Positions 1 through 17,688 of a stretch of 29,042 nucleotides of DNA are shown here, piece after piece (position 1 is the stretch's first letter; every line of letters begins with the position of its first letter). A program made the translations under genes and the position numbers. The notes under the pieces were generated by a model. The model saw nothing but the letters and a program-made list of their open reading frames with translations, was not told the origin of the DNA and did no database searches. Source of the stretch: a virus (taxonomy: Duplodnaviria; Heunggongvirae; Uroviricota; Caudoviricetes); the IMG/VR virus record IMGVR_UViG_3300029911_000006. One strand, written 5' to 3'.

Positions 1-59
1 ACTCGCTGACCGAGACGAATCTCTTCCAGCAGGGCCACGGCTTGTTCTAGTGGAGTCAT
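1..59 (-). CDS. N-terminal 19 codons (MTPLEQAVALLEEIRLGQR...) of a gene that runs past the window start
   Basis: ATG at 57-59 on minus; open to the window edge; begins 2 nt after the stop of the 62-265 gene. Confidence 0.25.
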   Translation of the reverse strand, partial: MTPLEQAVALLEEIRLGQR

Positions 60-61
60 AA

Positions 62-265
62 TCACCAAGGGAACTTCTGGCCGGTTTTCACGGTCACAAT
101 CGCACCGACAATGACCAGCACAATCATGAACACGAGGAAAGCGTTGTCACCAACTACCTCCCAAAACTTAACCCACCCACTAATCGGGGGTCTGTTCAGC
201 TTCGCCAACTCCAGTTCATGCTCCCGCTTCTCCTGCTCGTTCTGCAACTCGTTATCATCCATCAT
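62..265 (-). CDS. small membrane protein (67 aa, one TM helix)
   Basis: ORF track; hydrophobic stretch FLVFMIVLVIVGAIVTV. Confidence 0.4.
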   Translation of the reverse strand: MMDDNELQNEQEKREHELELAKLNRPPISGWVKFWEVVGDNAFLVFMIVLVIVGAIVTVKTGQKFPW

Positions 266-515
266 GCTGTACGTCCTCAGTTAAAATTCGGTTGATGTCC
301 TTCTCGTCAATGTCCAGCAGGTAGCCATCCGGCAGCTTCACCTGATAGTCATAGGGGAGAGACCCGTTGGGGTTCAATGTCCCATCCGATGCCTTCATAA
401 TCTCCACTGGCTCATCACCATGAACCATACCATGCGAGACCAGCGTGAGATAGTTCAGACTACCGTATCCTCGTTCGTAGCGCAAGACTACCTTGTCGCC
501 AACATTACGCAGCAT
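255..515 (-). CDS. hypothetical protein (about 86 aa if it starts at the internal ATG MLRNVGD)
   Basis: Track ORF 255-545 begins with GTG. The internal ATG at 515 has a GAGGAAG RBS 6 nt upstream. Confidence 0.4.
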   Translation of the reverse strand: MLRNVGDKVVLRYERGYGSLNYLTLVSHGMVHGDEPVEIMKASDGTLNPNGSLPYDYQVKLPDGYLLDIDEKDINRILTEDVQHDG

Positions 516-541
516 TCTTCTTCCTCTTCTTCTCGGTTGGG

Positions 542-664
542 TCACTCGTTGTGCAGGAACTCGAACAGGAGACGGTACCCGGTCTCTTCCTGCTCAGGCG
601 TGGTGATGTCGTAGCAGAGAACGTTGGGGCCGGTCTTCCGGTTGCCGTACATGAGAATCTTCAT
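542..664 (-). CDS. small hypothetical protein (about 40 aa, MKILMYGNRKTGPNVLCYDITTPEQEETGYRLLFEFLHNE)
   Basis: ATGA start/stop overlap with the 661-1398 gene; absent from the ORF track because it is under 60 aa. Confidence 0.3.
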   Translation of the reverse strand: MKILMYGNRKTGPNVLCYDITTPEQEETGYRLLFEFLHNE

Positions 665-1398
665 TTCGCCGCCTTCACCTTCTTCGACTTCGAACATTGA
701 GGGTTGATGCACACCGTTTCGTACTGGTTCTTGCTCACGCCCTTCACGCCACGCTTGACCAGACGCTCTCCCATTTCAGCGAGGCAGGTCTTGCACCACT
801 CTTCCTCAGGCACAGGCTTATCAGGGATGCCAGCAACCATCTTGTGGAACTTGTACGCCTTGCAGTAGCCTCCACCGTTGCTGTTAGATGGCTCTCCCAA
901 GTCGTGCATGTAAGGCGGAACGTCCGTCCGTCCATCCCGGCGAACGAGTTGGAAGGGGGTTCCCTTGGCACAATACTCGCACGCCTCATTGATACGCTGC
1001 TTCAGAGGTTTCTTGGCCTCGACAGCGGCTTTCTCCCGTGCTTCCTTGTCCCTCCAGAATTCATGGTTACGCATGTCGAAGTAGTGTTCAATTTCCTTCG
1101 TCGCGACCGAGACATTGTAGCCCATCCAACGCTCCGTCTCGTTGTCCAACTCCCGCTGCTTATCCGGGCGGAACTTCAGGAAGCCCCTCTTGTCGTAGCT
1201 GTAGACTTCGTTGCGAGGCACAGGCCGTGCAGAAATAGAATGCGTCCGCTTGTCAACGATGATGATTTCGATGGGACTGTCACCGTCGCAATCGCGAGGA
1301 ATCATCTGCTCACGCAGGGCAAAGACCTTCTTCTCGAAAGCCTTGAACACCTTCGGGTCGATGTCACCCCAACTCGATACTGATTTCGCCTTCGCCAT
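661..1398 (-). CDS. hypothetical protein, 245 aa, Cys-rich C-terminus (CEYC...CKTC...CINPQC)
   Basis: ORF track; TAATG overlap with the upstream small gene. Confidence 0.55.
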   Translation of the reverse strand: MAKAKSVSSWGDIDPKVFKAFEKKVFALREQMIPRDCDGDSPIEIIIVDKRTHSISARPVPRNEVYSYDKRGFLKFRPDKQRELDNETERWMGYNVSVATKEIEHYFDMRNHEFWRDKEAREKAAVEAKKPLKQRINEACEYCAKGTPFQLVRRDGRTDVPPYMHDLGEPSNSNGGGYCKAYKFHKMVAGIPDKPVPEEEWCKTCLAEMGERLVKRGVKGVSKNQYETVCINPQCSKSKKVKAAK

Positions 1399-1562
1399 TA
1401 CTGGGCTCCCGGAAATACGTGATGGTAGAACTTCACTGCTTGGATAGCGGCACGTGCAGCATCATCAGCGAGACCAAGTTCCGCATACTTCACGGCCCAC
1501 TTTGAGTGCTGCCACGAGTTGCGAATGGCCTTGCGTTGCCACGGTTGTAGTCCCTTGGGCAT
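1398..1562 (-). CDS. small hypothetical protein (54 aa, MPKGLQPWQRKAIRNSWQHSKWAVKYAELGLADDAARAAIQAVKFYHHVFPGAQ)
   Basis: ATG 1560-1562 overlaps the stop of the 1562-1807 ORF; TAATG junction with the 661-1398 gene. Confidence 0.3.
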   Translation of the reverse strand: MPKGLQPWQRKAIRNSWQHSKWAVKYAELGLADDAARAAIQAVKFYHHVFPGAQ

Positions 1563-1795
1563 CATATCCGCAGACCTAATGCTTTCTTGTCATCGTCGGA
1601 CAGCTTGTCGAGAGCGGCTTGCCGACGTGTAGCTTGAGCCACCCCCTCGGAACCGTCGCTACCCCAAGCATCCTTACCCTTCACTGACAGGGCAGCATCG
1701 GCCTCACGGACGAAGTAGGCTACGTGAACGGAGTGACCCTTACCTTCGTTTGAGTCCGAGTTGATAAGCGATTCGTATACGTTGAACTCTTTCAT
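1562..1795 (-). CDS. hypothetical protein (77 aa from MKEFNVYESL)
   Basis: ORF track 1562-1807; the second ATG has a GGAAAGGG RBS. Confidence 0.45.
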   Translation of the reverse strand: MKEFNVYESLINSDSNEGKGHSVHVAYFVREADAALSVKGKDAWGSDGSEGVAQATRRQAALDKLSDDDKKALGLRI

Positions 1796-1985
1796 ATCCC
1801 TTTCCAATCCAGCCCTGAGGCTCCTTCGGGATAAACCACAAAATCAGCAAACCGACAATTCCGATACATGTAGCAATCCACCGTTTTTTATCAGTGTCGG
1901 CCCATGTAACAAACTGCCACGGCAAGCTGAATGCCGAAAGAAACGACAAGACTACAATCAACCCATAAATGTCATCGAGGGTCAT
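1740..1985 (-). CDS. small membrane protein (two predicted TM helices), start at MTLDDIYG
   Basis: Internal ATG of track ORF 1740-2048; ATGA overlap with the 1982-2185 gene. Confidence 0.4.
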   Translation of the reverse strand: MTLDDIYGLIVVLSFLSAFSLPWQFVTWADTDKKRWIATCIGIVGLLILWFIPKEPQGWIGKGYERVQRIRIAYQLGLKRR

Positions 1986-2185
1986 CCAATATCCTTGCAG
2001 TCGGGGCACAGGTCGAGTAGAATGCCGTCTTTTATAACGACAGCCCACCCGCGTTCCTTGGCCTCGACCCTGAGAGCAGGGATGGATACTTCGTCAGCGA
2101 ACCGTAGTCCGCCCGGTGAAACCTCACCGCAGTCTCCATCGCATTTCAGTTCGACCCAGCGTCGTGCGCTCATGTCAGTATCCAA
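1982..2185 (-). CDS. hypothetical protein, 67 aa, CxxxC...CxxC zinc-ribbon-like
   Basis: ORF track; CDGDCGEV ... CPDC. Confidence 0.4.
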   Translation of the reverse strand: MDTDMSARRWVELKCDGDCGEVSPGGLRFADEVSIPALRVEAKERGWAVVIKDGILLDLCPDCKDIG

Positions 2186-2588
2186 TCATCTTGGCAGGAA
2201 CCTCTTCCGGCTCCCACACGTCAATGTCACGCACCCATGAGGAACCATAAGCACGCGACTCCACGGTGTAGAAGGCACCGTTGATGCTGGTCTCGTAACC
2301 GCTGGTGACGGCCTTGTGCATGATTCCGGTCGCTACGTCACGGAAGACCACTGGAGTGTAGTTGGGGAGAATGCGGCCATCCTTCGTGTGGAAGGGACGC
2401 TTGATTGCGAAGTTCTTGCTGGCCGGGGCACTGGAGGAGTAGTAGTTGACGAGACGCTCGAAGTAGACCCGTGCCTTCAGGGGCTTCCAGCGAATGAAAA
2501 GGACGAAGGCATACAGGATAATCATCGCGGCTGAACCAAAGCCGACGAGGTATCCCGAACAGTAGCGGTCTGCACCATAGTCAATCAT
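2175..2588 (-). CDS. membrane-anchored hypothetical protein, 137 aa
   Basis: ORF track; N-terminal TM segment; no SD; TATACT sits 6 nt upstream of the ATG (leaderless-type promoter). Confidence 0.5.
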   Translation of the reverse strand: MIDYGADRYCSGYLVGFGSAAMIILYAFVLFIRWKPLKARVYFERLVNYYSSSAPASKNFAIKRPFHTKDGRILPNYTPVVFRDVATGIMHKAVTSGYETSINGAFYTVESRAYGSSWVRDIDVWEPEEVPAKMIGY

Positions 2589-2594
2589 GGCTAG

Positions 2595-2625
2595 AGTATA
2601 CCGGAGTCTAGTGCATCTTGAACAA
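2595..2625 (-). promoter_or_regulatory. promoter-like element TTGTTC-N19-GGTATACT, 6 nt upstream of the ATG of the 2175-2588 gene
   Basis: -10 at 2595-2600 and -35 at 2620-2625 on minus, with an AT-rich tract upstream; member of a recurring motif family. Confidence 0.4.
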
Positions 2626-2645
2626 TAAATTTAGAAAATTTTCAC

Positions 2646-2843
2646 TCAGCCCACTGTGACATTGACAACTCGGTTGTTTTCAATGCTTAGGTTGAGACGT
2701 AAAGGGTCGTAGTCACGAGTCACAATGAGGGCTCGGCCATCGACTTTGGTCACCCGGCTGGAGTATCCGTACCCCATGATTTGGTTCCGGGCATCATCCA
2801 GTGACAGACCGATGAACTTGGAAGGGTCAACGGCCAGAATCAC
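2646..2843 (-). CDS. hypothetical protein, 65 aa
   Basis: ORF track. Confidence 0.35.
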   Translation of the reverse strand: MILAVDPSKFIGLSLDDARNQIMGYGYSSRVTKVDGRALIVTRDYDPLRLNLSIENNRVVNVTVG

Positions 2844-2901
2844 TTTTTCTTCTTGGCCTTCGGTTTCTCAGGCTTGGTCAGCTTTTTGATTTCATGCTTC
2901 T

Positions 2902-3051
2902 TCATACGATTTCTCCAAAGAGACGCCTTAGGTATCCCCTGCGTACACCCCAGTCCAACCACAGTTGTTCAAGGTTTCGAATCCTGCCACGCATCCAGTC
3001 AGGCACTACCGGCGAGTCATCGCCAGCGGCCACACGGAGCAGCCACAACAT
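2902..3051 (-). CDS. small W-rich hypothetical protein; possibly the C-terminal part of a frameshifted gene that starts at 3126
   Basis: Track ORF 2902-3114. A 19-codon ORF (MSDHVEAILRAQAWERAKG) begins at the MazG stop and ends at a GGG run, where a -1 nt change would fuse the two frames. Confidence 0.3.
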   Translation of the reverse strand: MLWLLRVAAGDDSPVVPDWMRGRIRNLEQLWLDWGVRRGYLRRLFGEIV

Positions 3052-3126
3052 CTCATGCCCACTCTTCTTATCCCTTGGCACGTTCCCATGCCTGAGCCCG
3101 GAGGATAGCTTCAACGTGGTCGCTCA

Positions 3127-3537
3127 TTAGCGGTCGTCTCCTGAGCCATGGACAACGCCACGCTCCTGCCGGGACTGAAGCTTGGCGACGTTCGTCTCTC
3201 CGCAGTCCTGAAGCGTGTAGCCAAGTTCCTTCATTCCGGCTGCGATGTACCAGAACACATCGCCGAATTCTTTCTTGAAGTTCAGGCGGATTTCTTCGGG
3301 CCACTCCTTGGGATTTGAGCCCCACTCCACGCCATTGTCACGGAGGAGCTTGCCCATCTTCTCGCAGATTTCCCCGGCTTCACCGGCCAGCTTGAAGAGG
3401 ACGTAGCAGAAGCCTTGGAATTCCCCCTGACCTTTATACAGGGCGGTCTCGACTGCGAGGTTCTGATAGTTGTTGAGAGTAGGTTCGAGGTGGAGGAGTG
3501 TAGCTCGGTCGGTATAGTCGTAAGTGTATTCGCTCAT
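3127..3537 (-). CDS. mazG: MazG-like nucleoside triphosphate pyrophosphohydrolase
   Basis: 136 aa; EExGE-type motifs (LAGEAGEICEKMGKLLRD ... EFGDVFWYIAAGMKELG) typical of phage MazG. Confidence 0.65.
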   Translation of the reverse strand: MSEYTYDYTDRATLLHLEPTLNNYQNLAVETALYKGQGEFQGFCYVLFKLAGEAGEICEKMGKLLRDNGVEWGSNPKEWPEEIRLNFKKEFGDVFWYIAAGMKELGYTLQDCGETNVAKLQSRQERGVVHGSGDDR

Positions 3538-3638
3538 GCAGAGTAATACTGAGAAAATTTTGGTAGTGGGGGAGGGTTATATATTGTCGGGGTAAAAACT
3601 TATTGAACTACGTAGGTCTTATACAGGAGCCCTACACC

Positions 3639-4322
3639 ATGACACTCGTAACCCTCATTTGTTCGAAATGTGGTAAAGAATTCGAAAGACCACTGAAAAC
3701 TCACAACCGTAATTTACGTTTAGGCTACACGACGGCCCAGTGCAGTGCGACCTGTCAAGTGGAACACCTCCGCCCAAAACCATGTGAACATTGTGGAAAC
3801 ACCACAACTAATCCAAGATTTTGTTCATCTAGATGTAATGCTTTAGCTACCTCCAAGTTCAAACCAAAACGGCCAAAACTTGGTCATTGCCGAGTATGTG
3901 GTGACTCAATCAGTAGCCAGAGAGTGTATTGCAAGACTTGTAGAAAACTAGCGGTTTCCAATTCTAAAGATTGGTCGGGGGTGACATTAGGGGAATTACG
4001 TATCAAAAGAAAAGCTAATGGGGACGCTACTGTTTGGGCACACGCCAAAAGGGTGTTTTTCGCCTCCCCTCTACCGAAAGAATGTTGGATATGCGGATAC
4101 TTTAAGCATATCGACGTGTGTCACATCAAGCCTGTGGCTGGGTTTGCGGATGCCACACTTATCTGTGAGATAAATAACCTGAAAAACCTAATGGGTCTTT
4201 GTCGTAATCATCATTGGGAGTTCGATCATGGACAGCTATCCAAAGAGGATAAAGAAAAATTGGTACTCCCGGTAGGATTCGAACCTACGTCTTGCTCTAA
4301 TCTGGAGCTAAACCGGTTATAA
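3639..4322 (+). CDS. HNH homing endonuclease
   Basis: CHIKPVAGF ... NLMGLCRNHHWEFDHG HNH motif with several CxxC pairs; AGGAG RBS before the ATG at 3639; AT-rich relative to its flanks; 3' end overlaps a tRNA on the opposite strand. Confidence 0.8.
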   Translation: MTLVTLICSKCGKEFERPLKTHNRNLRLGYTTAQCSATCQVEHLRPKPCEHCGNTTTNPRFCSSRCNALATSKFKPKRPKLGHCRVCGDSISSQRVYCKTCRKLAVSNSKDWSGVTLGELRIKRKANGDATVWAHAKRVFFASPLPKECWICGYFKHIDVCHIKPVAGFADATLICEINNLKNLMGLCRNHHWEFDHGQLSKEDKEKLVLPVGFEPTSCSNLELNRL

Positions 4323-4356
4323 GGCGGTTGCGTTAGACCACTACGCTACGGGAGCC
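4261..4356 (-). tRNA. atypical long (type II-like) tRNA, probable anticodon UAU (AUA reader); identity uncertain
   Basis: GTAGG-TTCGAAT-CCTAC T-arm, 7-bp acceptor with encoded CCA, 4-bp D-arm with GG, anticodon stem ACCGC/CCGGT with loop CTTATAA, 23-nt variable region. Confidence 0.5.
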
Positions 4357-4365
4357 TAAGCTTTT

Positions 4366-4452
4366 TGGTAGCGGCGGAGGGATTCGAACCCTCATGCCCC
4401 GAAGGGCCAGAGATTTTAAGTCTCCTGTGTATACCGTTCCAGCCACGCCGCC
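4366..4452 (-). tRNA. tRNA-Leu (anticodon UAA)
   Basis: Acceptor GGCGGCG/CGCCGCT; anticodon stem GGAGA/TCTCT with loop CTTAAAA; long variable arm; GAGGG-TTCGAAT-CCCTC; CCA encoded. Confidence 0.8.
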
Positions 4453-4504
4453 ATATTTATTCAATTGGAGTTGGGTATTCGTAAGCGGGTTGTGAAAGCG
4501 GTGT

Positions 4505-4765
4505 TCATTCTTTGAATCCTGTCCTTGTGCGTAGTGGAATCGACTTCGGTTGCGGCGGGTTCTCCACCACATGCTTGAGCCGCTCAGCGAACTCAGCTTC
4601 GTACTCTACTTCAGCTTCCTTGACCTTAGCCAATAACTCAGGGTCACTCGGCTCAGTCTTCACATAGGCGGCGAGAAGCTTGAGGAACTTTGTCCTCGCT
4701 TCCTTCACCGGCTCGTAGCTGTTCAACTGATCTACTTGCTCATCGGAAATTTGGCCTTCGTTCAT
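4505..4765 (-). CDS. hypothetical acidic protein, 86 aa
   Basis: ORF track; lies between tRNA genes. Confidence 0.45.
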   Translation of the reverse strand: MNEGQISDEQVDQLNSYEPVKEARTKFLKLLAAYVKTEPSDPELLAKVKEAEVEYEAEFAERLKHVVENPPQPKSIPLRTRTGFKE

Positions 4766-4793
4766 CTAACCCAATACTCCCAATTTGAAATGT

Positions 4794-4870
4794 TGGTGCG
4801 CCCTCTCGGGCTTGAACCGAGAACCCCCGCGTTATGAGCACGTCGCTCTGACCAATTGAGCTAAGGGCAC
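4794..4870 (-). tRNA. tRNA-Met (anticodon CAU; elongator type, or Ile2 if lysidinylated)
   Basis: GTGCCCT acceptor with G1-C72; loop CTCATAA; CTCGG-TTCAAGC-CCGAG T-arm; CCA encoded. Confidence 0.8.
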
Positions 4871-5046
4871 TAATCTTCATCATACTCGAAATACCCGGCC
4901 ACGTTACAAATGGCTTCGATGAACTCGTAAGCGTTCTCAATCACCCGGTCGGACTGGTACACCGCTTCAGAGCACACAATCTTCTGGTCAGCGATGAACT
5001 TCTCAGCGATTTGTAGAACTCTTTCAGCCTTCTCTTCGCGGGTCAT
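4870..5046 (-). CDS. small hypothetical protein (58 aa, MTREEKAERVLQIAEKFIADQKIVCSEAVYQSDRVIENAYEFIEAICNVAGYFEYDED)
   Basis: Found by manual translation; TTGAAC-N18-TTTATA lies 7 nt upstream of the ATG. Confidence 0.35.
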   Translation of the reverse strand: MTREEKAERVLQIAEKFIADQKIVCSEAVYQSDRVIENAYEFIEAICNVAGYFEYDED

Positions 5047-5206
5047 ACGTTCCTATAAACATGCACATCCGGTCAGGGTTCAATCCACGTCGCCTTGCGG
5101 CAGTTCCCCGTACCCAACTGAGGGTTCTTCTCACCAGAAAGCCAAGTACCCGTCGATGCTTGGTAGTATCAGTCTTGCCTGACTGCTTCACGGCGTATGT
5201 ACAAAC

Positions 5207-5299
5207 TGGAGGAAGGTGTCGGATTCGAACCCACGGTGCCTATCACTAGGACACTCTAGTTTTCAAGACTAGCGCAATCGACCGCTCTGCCAACCTTCC
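5207..5299 (-). tRNA. tRNA-Ser (anticodon UGA)
   Basis: Acceptor GGAAGGT/ACCTTCC; D-stem GCAG/TTGC; anticodon stem CTAGT/ACTAG with loop CTTGAAA; long variable arm; U73; CCA encoded; one G-G mismatch in the T-stem. Confidence 0.7.
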
Positions 5300-5307
5300 C
5301 AAACTTT

Positions 5308-5486
5308 TATTTCCTAGTGTAGACAATGCTCAACTGCGGGTCATTGTCCTTGACAACTGCCATCAAGAGCCCACCGTACCTGCTCTTGTAATACTTGACT
5401 GCCTTCGTATCCGAAGGGAACTCCTGTGCTGGAATCTGCTCATTGAACAGATGACCGTCGCACTCGGGATAGTACAGTTCGCTCAT
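5308..5486 (-). CDS. small hypothetical protein (59 aa, MSELYYPECDGHLFNEQIPAQEF...)
   Basis: Found by manual translation between tRNA genes. Confidence 0.3.
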
Positions 5487-5506
5487 GCAATACCTTTCAT
5501 AAATTT

Positions 5507-5594
5507 TGGCGGAGGCGGAGGGAGTTCAACCCCCAAGTCCTTGCGGAACGTCCCGTTTCGAGCGGGGTGGGCTTAGCACATGCCCAACGCCTCC
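5507..5594 (-). tRNA. tRNA-Ser (anticodon CGA)
   Basis: Acceptor GGAGGCG/CGCCTCC; D-stem GGGC/GCCC; loop CTCGAAA; long variable arm; G73; CCA encoded; unusual T-loop TTGAACT. Confidence 0.6.
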
Positions 5595-5599
5595 AATTT

Positions 5600-5685
5600 T
5601 GGCGGAGAGTCCGGGGGTCGAACCCGGTCAACCTTGCGGTTGTACAGTTTAGCAAACTGCTGCATTACCGTCCTGCCCACTCTCC
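5600..5685 (-). tRNA. tRNA-Ser (anticodon GCU)
   Basis: Acceptor GGAGAGT/ACTCTCC; anticodon stem GCAGT/ACTGT with loop TTGCTAA; 16-nt variable arm; CCGGG-TTCGACC-CCCGG T-arm; G73; CCA encoded; G at position 8. Confidence 0.7.
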
Positions 5686-5691
5686 AAACTT

Positions 5692-5913
5692 TTACGAACC
5701 ACCGAACCGTTCGAGCTTCTTCACCATGGCATCCAATTCGATGCCCCTCAGGAACTCGGGCCGGTTGGCCTGAACCGTCAGACCACAGCACTCACAGGTG
5801 CTGCTCTTCCGGTCGTACCCTGCTGCAACCTCACCAATCAATCGTGCCGCTTGCAACAGCTTCGCTGCGTTGTGCTCGGCCTCAGTGGCCTTGCGAATGT
5901 GTGTCATGCTCAT
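5692..5913 (-). CDS. hypothetical protein, 73 aa (MSMTHIRKATEAEHNAAKLL...CECCG...)
   Basis: Internal ATG of track ORF 5692-5991, with a GGAGG RBS 7 nt upstream. Confidence 0.45.
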   Translation of the reverse strand: MSMTHIRKATEAEHNAAKLLQAARLIGEVAAGYDRKSSTCECCGLTVQANRPEFLRGIELDAMVKKLERFGGS

Positions 5914-6029
5914 AAATGCCTCCTGTTGGTACATACGCTGGGGGCGGCTTAGAATTAACCCCTCACTTGTATATGTCCAGCTTTCAGGCAATATGAGCGG
6001 CTGACCTCACATTTATTTTGGCGTTGAAC

Positions 6030-6479
6030 TTAATTCTGATACAACTTGATTTCAAACGGCGGGACTTCCATCTTCCCGTATGGCTTGAACTCATCAAATC
6101 TGTGCTCCCCCGGCTTGGCCTCAACAAAGTAGCCAATCGTCTCCGGGTATACCTGCCCAAACTTCTCACGCATGTACGTGAACCGCTTCTTCTCCGCGTC
6201 CCACCGGGCTACTGTGGCGTTGCGGCACTTCCCGTGGTAGTACGCTTCGTGCTCAAGTTCCTCCAGCGGTACCATCGGCATCCCCGGCTTATGCTTCTCC
6301 GGTGTCGGACACTCCAGATAGCAGTTACCCTCTCGGACATAGGCATCAGCCTCTTCACGTGGAGTACCCCTGCCCACCATACGTTCCGCGACCGCTTCGG
6401 CTTCCTTACCGAAGACCCGCTCAGCACCACACTGCACACAAATCTTCCACTGTACATCCACGTACGTATCGAACTTCAT
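6030..6479 (-). CDS. hypothetical protein, 149 aa
   Basis: ORF track; GAAAGG RBS; a tRNA 3'-half remnant lies just upstream. Confidence 0.55.
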   Translation of the reverse strand: MKFDTYVDVQWKICVQCGAERVFGKEAEAVAERMVGRGTPREEADAYVREGNCYLECPTPEKHKPGMPMVPLEELEHEAYYHGKCRNATVARWDAEKKRFTYMREKFGQVYPETIGYFVEAKPGEHRFDEFKPYGKMEVPPFEIKLYQN

Positions 6480-6486
6480 GCAAACC

Positions 6487-6512
6487 TTTCTGTGCTGGAT
6501 TCGAACCAGCGG
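6487..6512 (-). other. tRNA 3'-fragment (GCTGG-TTCGAAT-CCAGC T-arm plus a 7-nt acceptor-like strand) with no matching 5' half
   Basis: Canonical T-arm read on minus; no complementary 5' acceptor strand or anticodon arm could be built from the downstream 80 nt. Confidence 0.3.
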
Positions 6513-6605
6513 TACCCCGGTACTTCGTGCTATGACACTTCCCGAAGAACTTCATCATAGTTAGGTTTAAGCCGCTCACCCAACAGTAAAGTAAAGCTTA
6601 CAAGT

Positions 6606-6695
6606 TGGCGGAGAAAGAGGGATTCGAACCCTCGATACCCTTGCGAGTATGCCACCTTTCCAAGGTGGTGCAATCGACCACTCTGCCATCTCTCC
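6606..6695 (-). tRNA. tRNA-Ser (anticodon GGA)
   Basis: Acceptor GGAGAGA/TTTCTCC; D-stem GCAG/TTGC; anticodon stem CCACC/GGTGG with loop TTGGAAA; long variable arm; GAGGG-TTCGAAT-CCCTC; G73; CCA encoded. Confidence 0.8.
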
Positions 6696-6696
6696 A

Positions 6697-6727
6697 AAAC
6701 TAAAAAGCCACCCGAGTTGGGCGGCTT
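6697..6727 (-). terminator. rho-independent terminator immediately 5' of tRNA-Ser(GGA): AGCCGCCC-AACUC-GGGUGGCU followed by UUUUUAGUUUU
   Basis: 8-bp GC-rich stem with a 5-nt loop and a U-tract, read on the minus strand. Confidence 0.6.
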
Positions 6728-6766
6728 TGGTATCTTGCTGAAGTCTGTGTTTACTTATCCACAGTA

Positions 6767-6844
6767 TCAAACGTTCACCACGCCGCCGCCAGTCCATGAA
6801 CTGGATGAGGTAGAGCTTGACGATATGGATAACGTGTTCTTCAT
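6767..6844 (-). CDS. 25-codon Ser-rich leader peptide MKNTLSISSSSTSSSSWTGGGVVNV
   Basis: Leaderless ATG 6 nt downstream of TATTAT. Nine Ser codons use all six Ser codons (TCC, TCG, TCA, AGC, TCT, AGT); also ATA and TTA. The stop lies 40 nt before the terminator. Confidence 0.4.
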   Translation of the reverse strand: MKNTLSISSSSTSSSSWTGGGVVNV

Positions 6845-16722: not shown

Positions 16723-17688
16723 TCACTTGACAAGTGCCTTCTTTACATTGGCTTTGAATTCCTCGAACAGGGGTTCAGGCTCAGGTTTGTTTTTCAAGTT
16801 CAAGGTGTTGATTTTGTCCTTCATGCTTCTCATCTGTTCCAAATCCGATTCGAATAGTCCCTTGCGACCGGGATTGAGAGAAGAAGCAAGAGCGTGGAAC
16901 TTGAGAGCAACTTCGGCCTGTTCCGATTTCACGATGAGCAAGGGGGCAACCAACTTAGCTACCTCCGCTGCTGCTGCGTGACTCCACACTAATGCCCATG
17001 CTGTCGCATGTTTGTCGGTCGCCTTGCGAGTCTGCATCACAGAGCCCCCGAATCTAGCCTGAATGGTTTCTAACAACCCCTTGTTGGTGTTGTAGACATA
17101 GCTCCTAAGGTAGTAGGACTCTTTACGCTTTTCTTCCCTCTTCACAATGGTTATGGAGCCCTCTGCATCAATCATAGCGGCCAGATAAGCCGAAGTCATT
17201 TGAGAAGCTACCTCCGCATTTATGCCACGAAGCTTCAACCAACCAATCTCTCTCTGAGAGAGGGCCGGTGGAGGGGGGTCTCCCGGAGACCAAGGGTTAA
17301 TATGGTCAGCGAGGTTGTTGAAGGACTTGCTACGATACCCGGTGGATACCCATATACCCATTTGGAGGGCGTTCAATAGATTCCATATAGCTTGGGGGAG
17401 ATGGGCTTCTGAACGGTCGCCTTCTCTGTAACGTTCGATGTGACGAAGGGCTGAACCTAATAGGTCGCCAATTTTCATCCCATTTTCCCAGTTGCGGTCG
17501 TCCCCATTTCCAGTCTTGCTCCGACCTTTATTACCAGCCTCATAAATACAGCTAACAAGGGCTAAAGCCTGACTAGGCATCCACTCGGGGGCACCCTTAC
17601 CTGTACGACTGTCACGTTGAGCACCACCTTCGTAAATGGTCTCACCAGCAGCACTCTTCTTGAACCCTACATCTAAAGTATCGCTCAT
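16723..17688 (-). CDS. 321-aa protein: unknown N-terminal domain fused to a C-terminal LAGLIDADG-type homing-endonuclease-like domain
   Basis: YLAAMIDAEGSITIV motif at about residue 170, followed by about 110 residues of the expected size, including LLETIQARFGGSV. Confidence 0.55.
   Translation of the reverse strand: MSDTLDVGFKKSAAGETIYEGGAQRDSRTGKGAPEWMPSQALALVSCIYEAGNKGRSKTGNGDDRNWENGMKIGDLLGSALRHIERYREGDRSEAHLPQAIWNLLNALQMGIWVSTGYRSKSFNNLADHINPWSPGDPPPPALSQREIGWLKLRGINAEVASQMTSAYLAAMIDAEGSITIVKREEKRKESYYLRSYVYNTNKGLLETIQARFGGSVMQTRKATDKHATAWALVWSHAAAAEVAKLVAPLLIVKSEQAEVALKFHALASSLNPGRKGLFESDLEQMRSMKDKINTLNLKNKPEPEPLFEEFKANVKKALVK

Follow-up and report, generated by a model that had tools for sequence, protein, structure and literature searches.

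Why a phage should group four serine tRNA genes in one short block is the question raised by IMG/VR record IMGVR_UViG_3300029911_000006, a 29,042-nt stretch of DNA from a member of the Caudoviricetes, here called the window. Seven tRNA genes lie on its minus strand, and a sequence-only reading of the region had linked the Ser tRNAs with a Ser-sensing leader located upstream. Analysis of this leader in the window and in related metagenome loci (named L001, L008, L009, L010, L016 and so on) strongly supports the link, through codon match, conservation and covariation. The sequences suggest that the leader is likely to act by ribosome-mediated transcription attenuation, which would switch on the phage tRNA genes when their cognate codons are decoded slowly.

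The leader was found by scanning for Ser-rich frames and by reading the 400 nt before the first tRNA gene in each relative. It consists of a short open reading frame (ORF) placed between a predicted promoter and an intrinsic terminator, both of which were picked up independently by consensus scan (Table 1). The motif around the promoter (ACTTTCG..GTATTAT) is conserved in position in L001, L008, L009, L010 and L016. The A of the leader ATG (position 6844) is the seventh base downstream of the -10 element; because this element ends 6 nt before the ATG, the transcript is predicted to be, and probably is, leaderless. The terminator has 10 pairs, 6 of them G-C according to the terminator scan, and its hairpin has an energy of -16.4 kcal/mol; no other minus-strand terminator is predicted between positions 7500 and 4000. 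There is no space for a promoter after the terminator, and the tRNA genes would therefore be transcribed by read-through only. A scan of Rfam gave no leader family at its gathering score (the best, Phe_leader, reached 23.8 bits against 55, with E = 0.85, over the terminator) and no T-box-like element.

The codons of the leader correspond closely to the tRNAs encoded behind it. The nine Ser codons (TCC, TCG, TCA, AGC, TCT, TCA, TCC, AGT and TCA) lie within leader codons 6-16 and comprise all six kinds, so that each of the four Ser isoacceptors would be needed; one TTA and one ATA codon adjoin the run. The repertoire of the block matches these codons, with four Ser tRNAs, tRNA-Leu(UAA) for UUA, and the UAU and probably also the CAU tRNA for AUA. 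Apart from the leader, no stretch of 12 consecutive codons in 58 kb read in six frames has 11 or more codons from the set of the block. The small hairpin over the last Ser codons is stronger in the relatives, where it covaries (CGUCCAG/CUGGACG in L008 and L016, CGUCUAG/CUAGACG in L009). It is placed where an RNA-polymerase pause hairpin would be, and it is possible that it serves as one.

The unit of promoter, leader and terminator precedes the Ser block in the window and in five relatives. The leader peptides of the latter begin with MKNTLSISTSSSSSSSSGRGG (L008), MKNTLSISTSSSSSSSSTGRGG (L016), MNNTSTISSISSSSSSSRRDG (L009), MKRNYSSTSLSSSSISGRGG (L010) and MKNMISISSSSSSSSTSGWDG (L001). The Ser runs of the six leaders contain 8-11 Ser codons and differ from one another by synonymous Ser codons. 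ATA is present in all six leaders, and a UAU or CAU tRNA in five of the six blocks, the L010 contig ending too early. TTA is found in four leaders whose blocks include tRNA-Leu(UAA); the L009 leader is without TTA, and no Leu-UAA tRNA lies within 10 kb on either side of the ligase gene of that phage. The order GGA-GCU-CGA-UGA of the Ser tRNAs is kept in L008 and L009 (DNA ligase 72-78% identical), and L001, L010 and L016 have three Ser tRNAs and Leu-UAA, accompanied in L001 and L016 by a UAU or CAU tRNA. The Ser group is an old and conserved unit.

Base pairs in the leaders were counted from folds of the individual sequences; MAFFT alignments misplaced L008 and L010 around indels, and the pairs that RNAalifold reported as 'broken' in the leader alignment are alignment errors. 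Because an equilibrium fold is uninformative on a kinetic switch, shortened and footprint-constrained folds were used. In folds that end before the 3' arm of the terminator, the 5' arm of the terminator pairs with leader codons ~19-22 in all six phages. The domain closed by this antiterminator helix has an energy of -21 to -29 kcal/mol, and 7-8 nt of the helix also belong to the terminator stem. For the terminator hairpins of the six phages the values are -16 to -18 kcal/mol, which is the same order as in the E. coli trp attenuator. The antiterminator survives a ribosome footprint on the early or middle Ser codons and is lost when the footprint is moved to the last Ser codon or to the stop codon. 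An exclusive antiterminator with footprint-dependent placement was found in constrained folds of the six Ser-type leaders and of three leaders of other types, which are described below.

The sequences of the antiterminator helix show how it has been maintained. The antiterminator strand and the terminator 5' arm are GGCGGC : GCCGCC in the window, GGUGGC : GCCACC in L008 and L016, GACGGC : GCCGUC in L009 and L001, and AGGCGGC : GCCGCCU in L010, with compensatory changes at two positions of the helix. The encoded residues vary (G, R or D) but the pairing is kept, indicating selection on the RNA.

Leaders matched to their tRNAs also stand before other blocks. The second leader, which belongs to the same genome as the window, has a similar promoter, the ORF MTLKQTNSKRGMWQQHNRRSTGLCLSHGRVKIT, a terminator and an antiterminator (GGGUCUGU:ACAGACCC), and precedes a block of Trp, His, Arg, Asn, Gln-CUG, Lys and CAU tRNAs. 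Thirteen of 16 consecutive codons can be read by its own block, and the Gln codons (3/3) are CAG, matching tRNA-Gln(CUG). A homologue of this leader is positioned before the Trp tRNA of L009. The third leader, from a related lineage, contains CTG, CTA, TTG and CTT together with TAT and TAC, has both terminator and antiterminator, and precedes two Tyr tRNAs and Leu-CAG, Leu-CAA, Leu-GAG and Leu-UAG. It was located in L049, the only useful one among at least 120 matches, mostly due to chance, of a 14-base promoter pattern in IMG/VR; the L049 contig ends inside the terminator, and the downstream tRNAs were read in the 82% relative L144. A weaker case comes from L163, a more distant phage on a 265-kb contig, in which a short ORF with CCA, CCG, CCT, four ATG, TTT and TTC stands before Pro-UGG, Pro-CGG, Pro-GGG, two CAU tRNAs and Phe; no clean terminator was identified there.

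In the mechanism that we propose, the seven tRNA genes would form the first regulated block of a large array, and their transcription would start at the host-type (sigma-70-like) promoter. When decoding is fast, the ribosome would reach the stop codon and cover GGCGGCGU, the terminator would form and transcription would stop. When cognate charged tRNA is scarce, decoding of any one of these codons would slow down and the ribosome would stall early in the Ser run, leaving GGCGGCGU free to pair with the terminator 5' arm. The antiterminator formed in this way would let RNA polymerase enter the tRNA genes, and the outcome would be a demand-controlled, self-limiting supply of exactly the scarce tRNAs. 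Under attenuation, the four Ser isoacceptors would be grouped because they share one Ser-codon sensor; the presence of every Ser codon in the leader, and the fact that decoders of UUA and AUA travel with the Ser tRNAs, would be explained as well. The sequences themselves show the elements with their order and conservation, the match of the codons and the covariation; from these we infer translation of the leader, termination and regulated read-through.

A number of observations weigh against attenuation. At equilibrium the full leader always adopts the terminator fold, so that the model needs co-transcriptional kinetics. The antiterminator also forms without any ribosome, and the upstream hairpin leaves out the antiterminator strand; no trp-like 1:2 pairing that would sequester this strand in an untranslated leader was seen in the folds, and the default state of the switch may be ON. 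The helix that closes the antiterminator domain is short, with 6-8 bp. TTA is missing from the L001 leader, even though tRNA-Leu(UAA) is encoded 3.6 kb further on. The codon set of the second leader is broad, covering ~25% of all codons, and its score of 13/16 is equalled at two other places in the 58 kb. The six Ser-type leaders share descent, and the independent events are 2-3 compensatory changes and 2-3 leader types. Finally, if amino-acid starvation were the cause of the stall, added tRNA would not help.

The first alternative, which we consider unlikely, is that the Ser tRNAs are a constitutive part of a large tRNA complement which tops up or replaces the host pool, in response to codon usage or tRNA decay, the Ser ORF and the hairpin being incidental and the terminator leaky. 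Giant phages with many tRNAs are well known, and the array around the window is indeed large. L017, which is 99.98% identical to window positions 1-10265, runs on beyond the window start, and together with L021 it adds 17 further tRNA genes on the same strand, the first of them 9.9 kb downstream of the UAU tRNA: Trp, His, Arg-CCG, -ACG, -UCU and -CCU, three Asn and one odd 69-nt gene, two Gln-CUG, three Lys-CUU, Lys-UUU and a second CAU tRNA. At least 24 tRNA genes lie within 26 kb in the genome of the window phage; both the Ser and the Arg set are full, and isoacceptors are sorted by amino acid. The strong bias to serine that had been claimed for a small cluster does not hold in this larger context: the proportion of four in seven is a window-edge effect, the window containing just the Ser block, and since Arg is also complete, as a four-isoacceptor set in the neighbouring block, and Asn, Gln and Lys are present in several copies, serine is not singled out. 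Ser-rich stretches arise by chance in off-frames of this DNA, and the equilibrium fold of the RNA is that of a plain terminator, both of which suit a constitutive array. A constitutive array does not explain, however, why, in every relative, a terminator ends ~5 nt ahead of the first tRNA, making the tRNAs dependent on read-through, or why the Ser run is kept through synonymous changes while the tail of the leader changes its residues and keeps its pairing. Nor does it account for two further leader types that match their own tRNA blocks.

Codon usage bears on the same alternative. Skewed use of Ser codons is not involved, as each of the six accounts for 12-23%, and a Ser-rich proteome was rejected as the cause of the Ser tRNAs because serine makes up an unremarkable 6.7% of residues. 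TTA and ATA, in contrast, are rare (0.40% and 0.65% of phage codons), and a constitutive supply leaves it unexplained that both are found in the leader. Compensation usually takes the form of topping up rare codons that end in A or U. Several of the tRNAs (Ser-CGA, Arg-CCG, Gln-CUG and Lys-CUU) have C34 and read G-ending codons only, which misfits that pattern. The codon-usage compensation suggested by the sequence-only reading is thus weakly supported: it fits the decoders of UUA and AUA, but not the C34 tRNAs.

A second alternative is Ser-specific counter-defence, in which the four isoacceptors would replace tRNA-Ser, or resist its loss, under attack by a host nucleotidyltransferase of the MenT3/AbiEii type, which would recognise the long variable arm, or by a VapC-type nuclease that would cleave Ser anticodon loops. 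Such systems exist. MenT3 targets tRNA-Ser via the variable loop (PMC11541572), the abortive-infection toxin AbiEii has been reported as likely to prefer class II tRNAs (bioRxiv 10.64898/2026.01.19.700257), and VapCs cut Ser tRNAs, which mycobacteriophages avoid carrying (PMC10264068). For a response of this kind, a sensor that detects slow decoding of Ser codons would be a suitable trigger, and genes of RNA-repair type are found nearby (RlaP and Tpt1/KptA, with a Thg1-like enzyme and RNA ligase in relatives). We nevertheless regard counter-defence as quite improbable, as serine is not special beside a complete Arg set and multi-copy Lys, Asn and Gln tRNAs, the Ser anticodon loops are canonical with no evasion mutation visible, and all seven tRNAs have an ordinary CCA end. 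It is possible, though doubtful, that the leaders themselves are attack sensors: each block would stay mostly off until ribosomes stall on its own codons, as would happen when a host abortive-infection nuclease or nucleotidyltransferase, or host shut-off by the phage, removes the tRNA families concerned, and the matching replacements would then be switched on. If this is true, they would constitute an inducible, family-specific anti-defence circuit built from an attenuator.

In the 29-kb window ARAGORN finds exactly seven tRNA genes, all on the minus strand and all with an encoded CCA at the 3' end, at the same coordinates as in the sequence-only reading and with the same four Ser anticodons (UGA, CGA, GCU and GGA) and the same atypically long UAU tRNA. 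The Rfam tRNA model RF00005, run with permissive filters (gathering score 29 bits), is passed by six of the seven, with 44.2-58.6 bits. The four Ser tRNAs have long variable arms with stems of 4-6 bp, canonical anticodon loops (CUUGAAA, CUCGAAA, UUGCUAA and UUGGAAA) and the discriminator G73 in three of four, with U73 in Ser-UGA. With a Ser anticodon, a long variable arm and G73 in three of four, their sequences have the features expected of bacterial class II tRNA-Ser.

The gene under the gathering score is Ser-CGA, whose best Rfam match is tRNA-Sec with 23.8 bits; its T loop is UUGAACU and its D loop lacks GG. In an alignment of five orthologues of this lineage, 98.3% of the pair cells are standard pairs, compared with only 34-53% in slid controls, and compensatory changes on both sides are found in 15 of 24 pairs. 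At the tertiary 19-56 pair the window has C-G and L008 has A-U, and the other three phages have G-C. Because the cloverleaf and the 19-56 pair covary in five orthologues, Ser-CGA is a constrained tRNA rather than a pseudogene. In L010 the anticodon UGA is found on a tRNA whose body is that of the Ser-CGA lineage (D arm TTGG.ACATGTGGCAAG), an apparent switch from C34 to U34 inside this lineage. Ser-UGA of the window has a single G-G mismatch in the T stem. In L001 a Ser(GGA)-like tRNA directly after the leader and terminator was missed by ARAGORN; its T arm is shortened (GGGGTTCCCC), and it is either degenerate or unusual.

That some or all of the tRNA genes are decaying, functionless pseudogenes carried by homing endonucleases is exceedingly improbable: the low Rfam score of Ser-CGA, the mismatches in Ser-UGA (G-G) and the UAU tRNA (C-C), a T-arm-like remnant within the block and the HNH genes inside or beside the clusters are outweighed by six genes scoring well above the Rfam threshold, by the compensatory pairs and covarying tertiary pair of the Ser-CGA lineage, and by synteny of the block across phages whose proteins are just 50-80% identical. 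The T-arm-like segment itself (GCTGG TTCGAAT CCAGC) has a variable-arm-like hairpin before it, lies just upstream of a 149-aa ORF, and probably derives from a class II tRNA gene that has decayed.

Table 1. Positions of the leader units, tRNA genes and other features (window coordinates unless a locus is named).
Feature	Position	Strand	Basis or remark
Sigma-70-like promoter: -35 TTCACT, 16-nt spacer, -10 TATTAT	6851-6878	-	consensus scan; predicted
Leader ORF, 25 codons + stop (6769-6767), MKNTLSISSSSTSSSSWTGGGVVNV	6767-6844	-	
Small hairpin UCCAGU-UCAU-GGACUG (6 bp UCCAGU/GGACUG, loop UCAU), over last Ser codons	6789-6804	-	fold
Antiterminator 5' strand GGCGGCGU, leader codons 20-22	6780-6787	-	pairs with terminator 5' arm in shortened folds; helix has 7 nt in common with terminator stem
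Intrinsic terminator AAAGCCGCCC-AACUC-GGGUGGCUUU + U tract	6696-6728	-	ends ~5 nt before tRNA-Ser(GGA)
tRNA-Ser(GGA), 90 nt, G73, CCA	6606-6695	-	ARAGORN; Rfam 56.9 bits
tRNA-Ser(GCU), 86 nt, G73, CCA	5600-5685	-	ARAGORN; Rfam 45.4 bits
tRNA-Ser(CGA), 88 nt, G73, CCA, atypical	5507-5594	-	ARAGORN; under Rfam cut-off
tRNA-Ser(UGA), 93 nt, U73, CCA	5207-5299	-	ARAGORN; Rfam 51.0 bits
tRNA with CAU anticodon, CCA	4794-4870	-	ARAGORN (called Met)
tRNA-Leu(UAA), 87 nt, A73, CCA	4366-4452	-	ARAGORN; Rfam 44.2 bits
tRNA with UAU anticodon (reads AUA), 95 nt, A73, CCA	4261-4355	-	ARAGORN; Rfam 58.6 bits
T-arm-like GCTGG TTCGAAT CCAGC	6494-6523 (within 6480-6560)	-	
Second leader unit, MTLKQTNSKRGMWQQHNRR...	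L021 6560-6862 (~9.5 kb beyond window start); L009 20985-21202		
Third leader unit, MNRLSNNSNLSLSLYYLLS...	L144 2713-3130; L049 12854-13035	- (L144)	
Short ORF MNIMRPFTMIRPCMPTVHEGMDFVL	L163 2700-2904		more distant phage
tRNA of Ser-CGA lineage with anticodon UGA	L010 20928-21023		
Ser(GGA)-like tRNA	L001 16480-16565		missed by ARAGORN
tRNAs with class-I anticodon and long variable arm	4261-4355; L017 16300-16389, 16676-16764, 18240-18330, 18625-18711		
149-aa ORF	6030-6479	-	ORF list; called gene on all metagenome copies
73-aa ORF	5692-5913	-	called on metagenome copies (L002 13414-13635, mapped onto window)
59-aa ORF	5307-5486	-	ORF list
58-aa ORF	4870-5046	-	ORF list; called on metagenome copies
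86-aa ORF	4505-4765	-	conserved
HNH endonuclease gene, Pfam HNH_2, E = 2.8e-7	3603-4322 (ORF); called as 3639-4322, 227 aa, on ENA contigs	+	
Split NAD-dependent DNA ligase region	7452-9326 (-), 9356-9994 (+), 10273-11055 (+), 11809-12201 (-)	both	
HD_4 (RelA/SpoT-type hydrolase) gene	13072-13653	-	
321-aa protein: dATP/dGTP diphosphohydrolase N-terminal domain + HNH endonuclease-like C-terminal part	16723-17688	-	
RlaP and RNA 2'-phosphotransferase (Tpt1/KptA family) genes	L021 3924-4910 and 16874-17395		just beyond window

Two tRNAs of the block probably share the AUA codon. The UAU tRNA has a 23-nt variable arm, with a 4-bp stem and a 7-nt loop, a 94-nt core without G1, and its C-C mismatch is located at the top of the anticodon stem. 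Full-length relatives with 76% identity are present in the Lactobacillus phages LpeD and Semele, and the stem of the variable arm covaries among the three (GCUC/GAGC versus ACACU/AGUGU). The possibility that this tRNA is a suppressor, or has a 9-nt anticodon loop, was rejected; the simplest arrangement is a 7-nt loop (U33, UAU, A37), common to the Lactobacillus phage relatives. A mobile tRNA-HNH unit was also dropped, as comparison of the window HNH protein with those beside the Lactobacillus-phage UAU tRNAs gave E = 0.32 for one and only a weak Cys-rich match of 8e-5 for the other.

The CAU tRNA had been taken as tRNA-Met. The anticodon is confirmed but the identity is not: the tRNA is probably of the lysidine-type tRNA-Ile2, reading AUA, as its sequence suggests. 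Against 5,426 E. coli genomes its sole matches, in 82 genomes (76% identity, E = 0.2), are prophage genes annotated by PGAP as tRNA-Ile with a CAT anticodon, and none is tRNA-Met. It carries C4-G69 and C5-G68, which we take to be TilS determinants, and in relatives its position is occupied by either a CAU or a UAU tRNA.

The variable arm of the UAU tRNA is not an isolated feature. Arms of this length are normally restricted to Leu, Ser and Tyr tRNAs; here they are seen on five tRNAs with class-I anticodons, Ile-UAU (95 nt), Arg-CCG (90), Arg-ACG (89), Asn-GUU (91) and Lys-CUU (87). It is a matter of speculation whether these long-armed tRNAs are reshaped copies that escape the enzymes which remove tRNA families.

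The tRNA genes are interspersed with small ORFs, which are called genes on every metagenome copy. As the sequence-only reading had noted, small ORFs lie among the tRNAs, and some of them at least are real genes, among them the 86-aa ORF, with 51-73% identity in L001, L008 and L009. As a single-protein query this ORF had no match in IMG/VR, and a metagenome scan gave two loci only. L001 also has a homologue of the 149-aa ORF, upstream of Ser-UGA, and one of the 59-aa ORF, after Ser-CGA. The flanking HNH endonuclease gene is likewise real; this gene and the tRNA block are convergent, with the final 62 nt of the gene antisense to the 3' end of the UAU tRNA.

The surrounding genes are phage-like and include those for an NAD-dependent DNA ligase, MazG, HNH and GIY-YIG endonucleases and a dATP/dGTP diphosphohydrolase-like domain. 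Megablast of positions 3500-7500 against 50,697 cultured phage records gave no cultured relative, and in more distant blastn comparisons with cultured phages individual tRNAs were the only matches, tRNA-Ser(UGA) being 76-84% identical to tRNA-Ser genes of T4-like phages. Exact-pattern scans of IMG/VR with the UAU tRNA and with the first 24 nt of the leader gave no match. More than 20 metagenome contigs carry an identical ligase, a gene from nearby in the same genome is found on a contig of 431,749 bp, and ligases with 50-72% identity are located on contigs of 405-463 kb; the window phage is a giant phage of an uncultured clade. In L014 (ligase 51% identical) no tRNA lies within 10 kb of the ligase, because the gene order is rearranged.

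The ligase of the window is split. Its N-terminal Ia domain forms an ORF of its own, of 130 aa, 2.5 kb upstream of the 624-aa body, and the two parts are separated by an insertion with a GIY-YIG endonuclease and an ART-PolyVal ADP-ribosyltransferase on the opposite strand. Relatives have a one-piece ligase of 700-740 aa, and that of L001 is broken at a different site by a 323-aa ORF on the opposite strand. The window also has an HD_4 gene and, just beyond its edge, RlaP and Tpt1/KptA genes, to which L008, L009 and L014 add a Thg1-like enzyme and an RNA ligase upstream of the ligase gene. Taken together, these genes suggest tRNA or RNA repair and alarmone control. The hydrolase domain of the 321-aa protein listed in Table 1 is free-standing in relatives, with 150-208 aa.

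The leader unit resembles the ribosome-mediated attenuators of E. coli and Salmonella, of which the trp, his, leu, thr, ilv and pheA leaders have been reviewed (PMC1183508). As in the trp, his, leu and thr leaders, a promoter is followed by a short ORF with a run of regulatory codons, an intrinsic terminator and a competing antiterminator (PMC1183508). The small hairpin is at the place of the pause hairpin of the biosynthetic leaders, and the phage leaders mix amino acids in the way of thr (Thr, Ile) and ilv (Ile, Leu, Val). There are also differences. The targets of the phage leader are tRNA genes, so that decoding capacity would be adjusted instead of amino-acid supply; the Ser leader has all six synonymous codons and could report on each isoacceptor; its transcript is apparently leaderless, and no 1:2 pairing that would enforce termination in the absence of translation is evident. 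Moreover, one phage genome holds a family of codon-matched leaders. The pheM leader attenuator of E. coli pheST controls phenylalanyl-tRNA synthetase through decoding of the cognate codons, and is similar in that a leader peptide governs a component of the translation apparatus. It differs in acting on a synthetase for one amino acid in the chromosome, rather than on tRNA genes in several codon-matched blocks of a phage.

Other systems share some of these elements. In mycobacteria, leaderless polycysteine short ORFs are Cys-responsive attenuators (bioRxiv 10.1101/834739); they too are leaderless, stand first in an operon with repeated codons of one class, and sense decoding, but they serve cysteine metabolism, with effects described mainly on translation and operon expression, whereas in the phage a terminator and antiterminator precede tRNA genes. 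T-box riboswitches (PMC2879506) likewise tie antitermination to the state of a specific tRNA and have translation-related targets; the T-box, however, binds uncharged tRNA directly by a specifier codon and has no leader ORF, unlike the phage unit. The clustering of CCA-encoding tRNAs with small ORFs and HNH or GIY-YIG genes recalls the T4 tRNA region with SegB (PMC2988022) and the complements of giant phages. Copies of the toxin-attacked families Ser, Arg, Lys and Asn are also carried by phages in the counter-defence model (PMC10264068), which depends on altered anticodon loops that prevent cleavage; the loops of the Ser tRNAs described here are canonical, and what distinguishes these tRNAs is their regulation. 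In a full-text literature search, incomplete in its coverage, control by a leader peptide was not found described for tRNA genes or for phage tRNA arrays, which is absence of evidence only. We know of no phage tRNA cluster with a codon-matched leader, terminator and antiterminator before its blocks.

The purpose of phage tRNA genes has been debated for decades, the candidates being codon compensation, replacement of host tRNAs that decay, and escape from defences directed at tRNA. If the arrays are gated by attenuation, through leader codons that mirror the tRNAs behind them, the phage itself would reveal the purpose of its tRNAs, which would be made when those codons limit decoding; a question that has been approached by correlation would become testable with simple reporter constructs. 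Attenuation would be extended from amino-acid supply to tRNA supply, and the grouping of isoacceptors by amino acid in the arrays would be explained. The combination of promoter, matched short ORF, terminator and tRNA would also serve as a sequence signature in searches of other giant phages and mobile elements. Being compact and modular, the design could find a second use in synthetic form, as a sensor of the capacity to decode particular codons.

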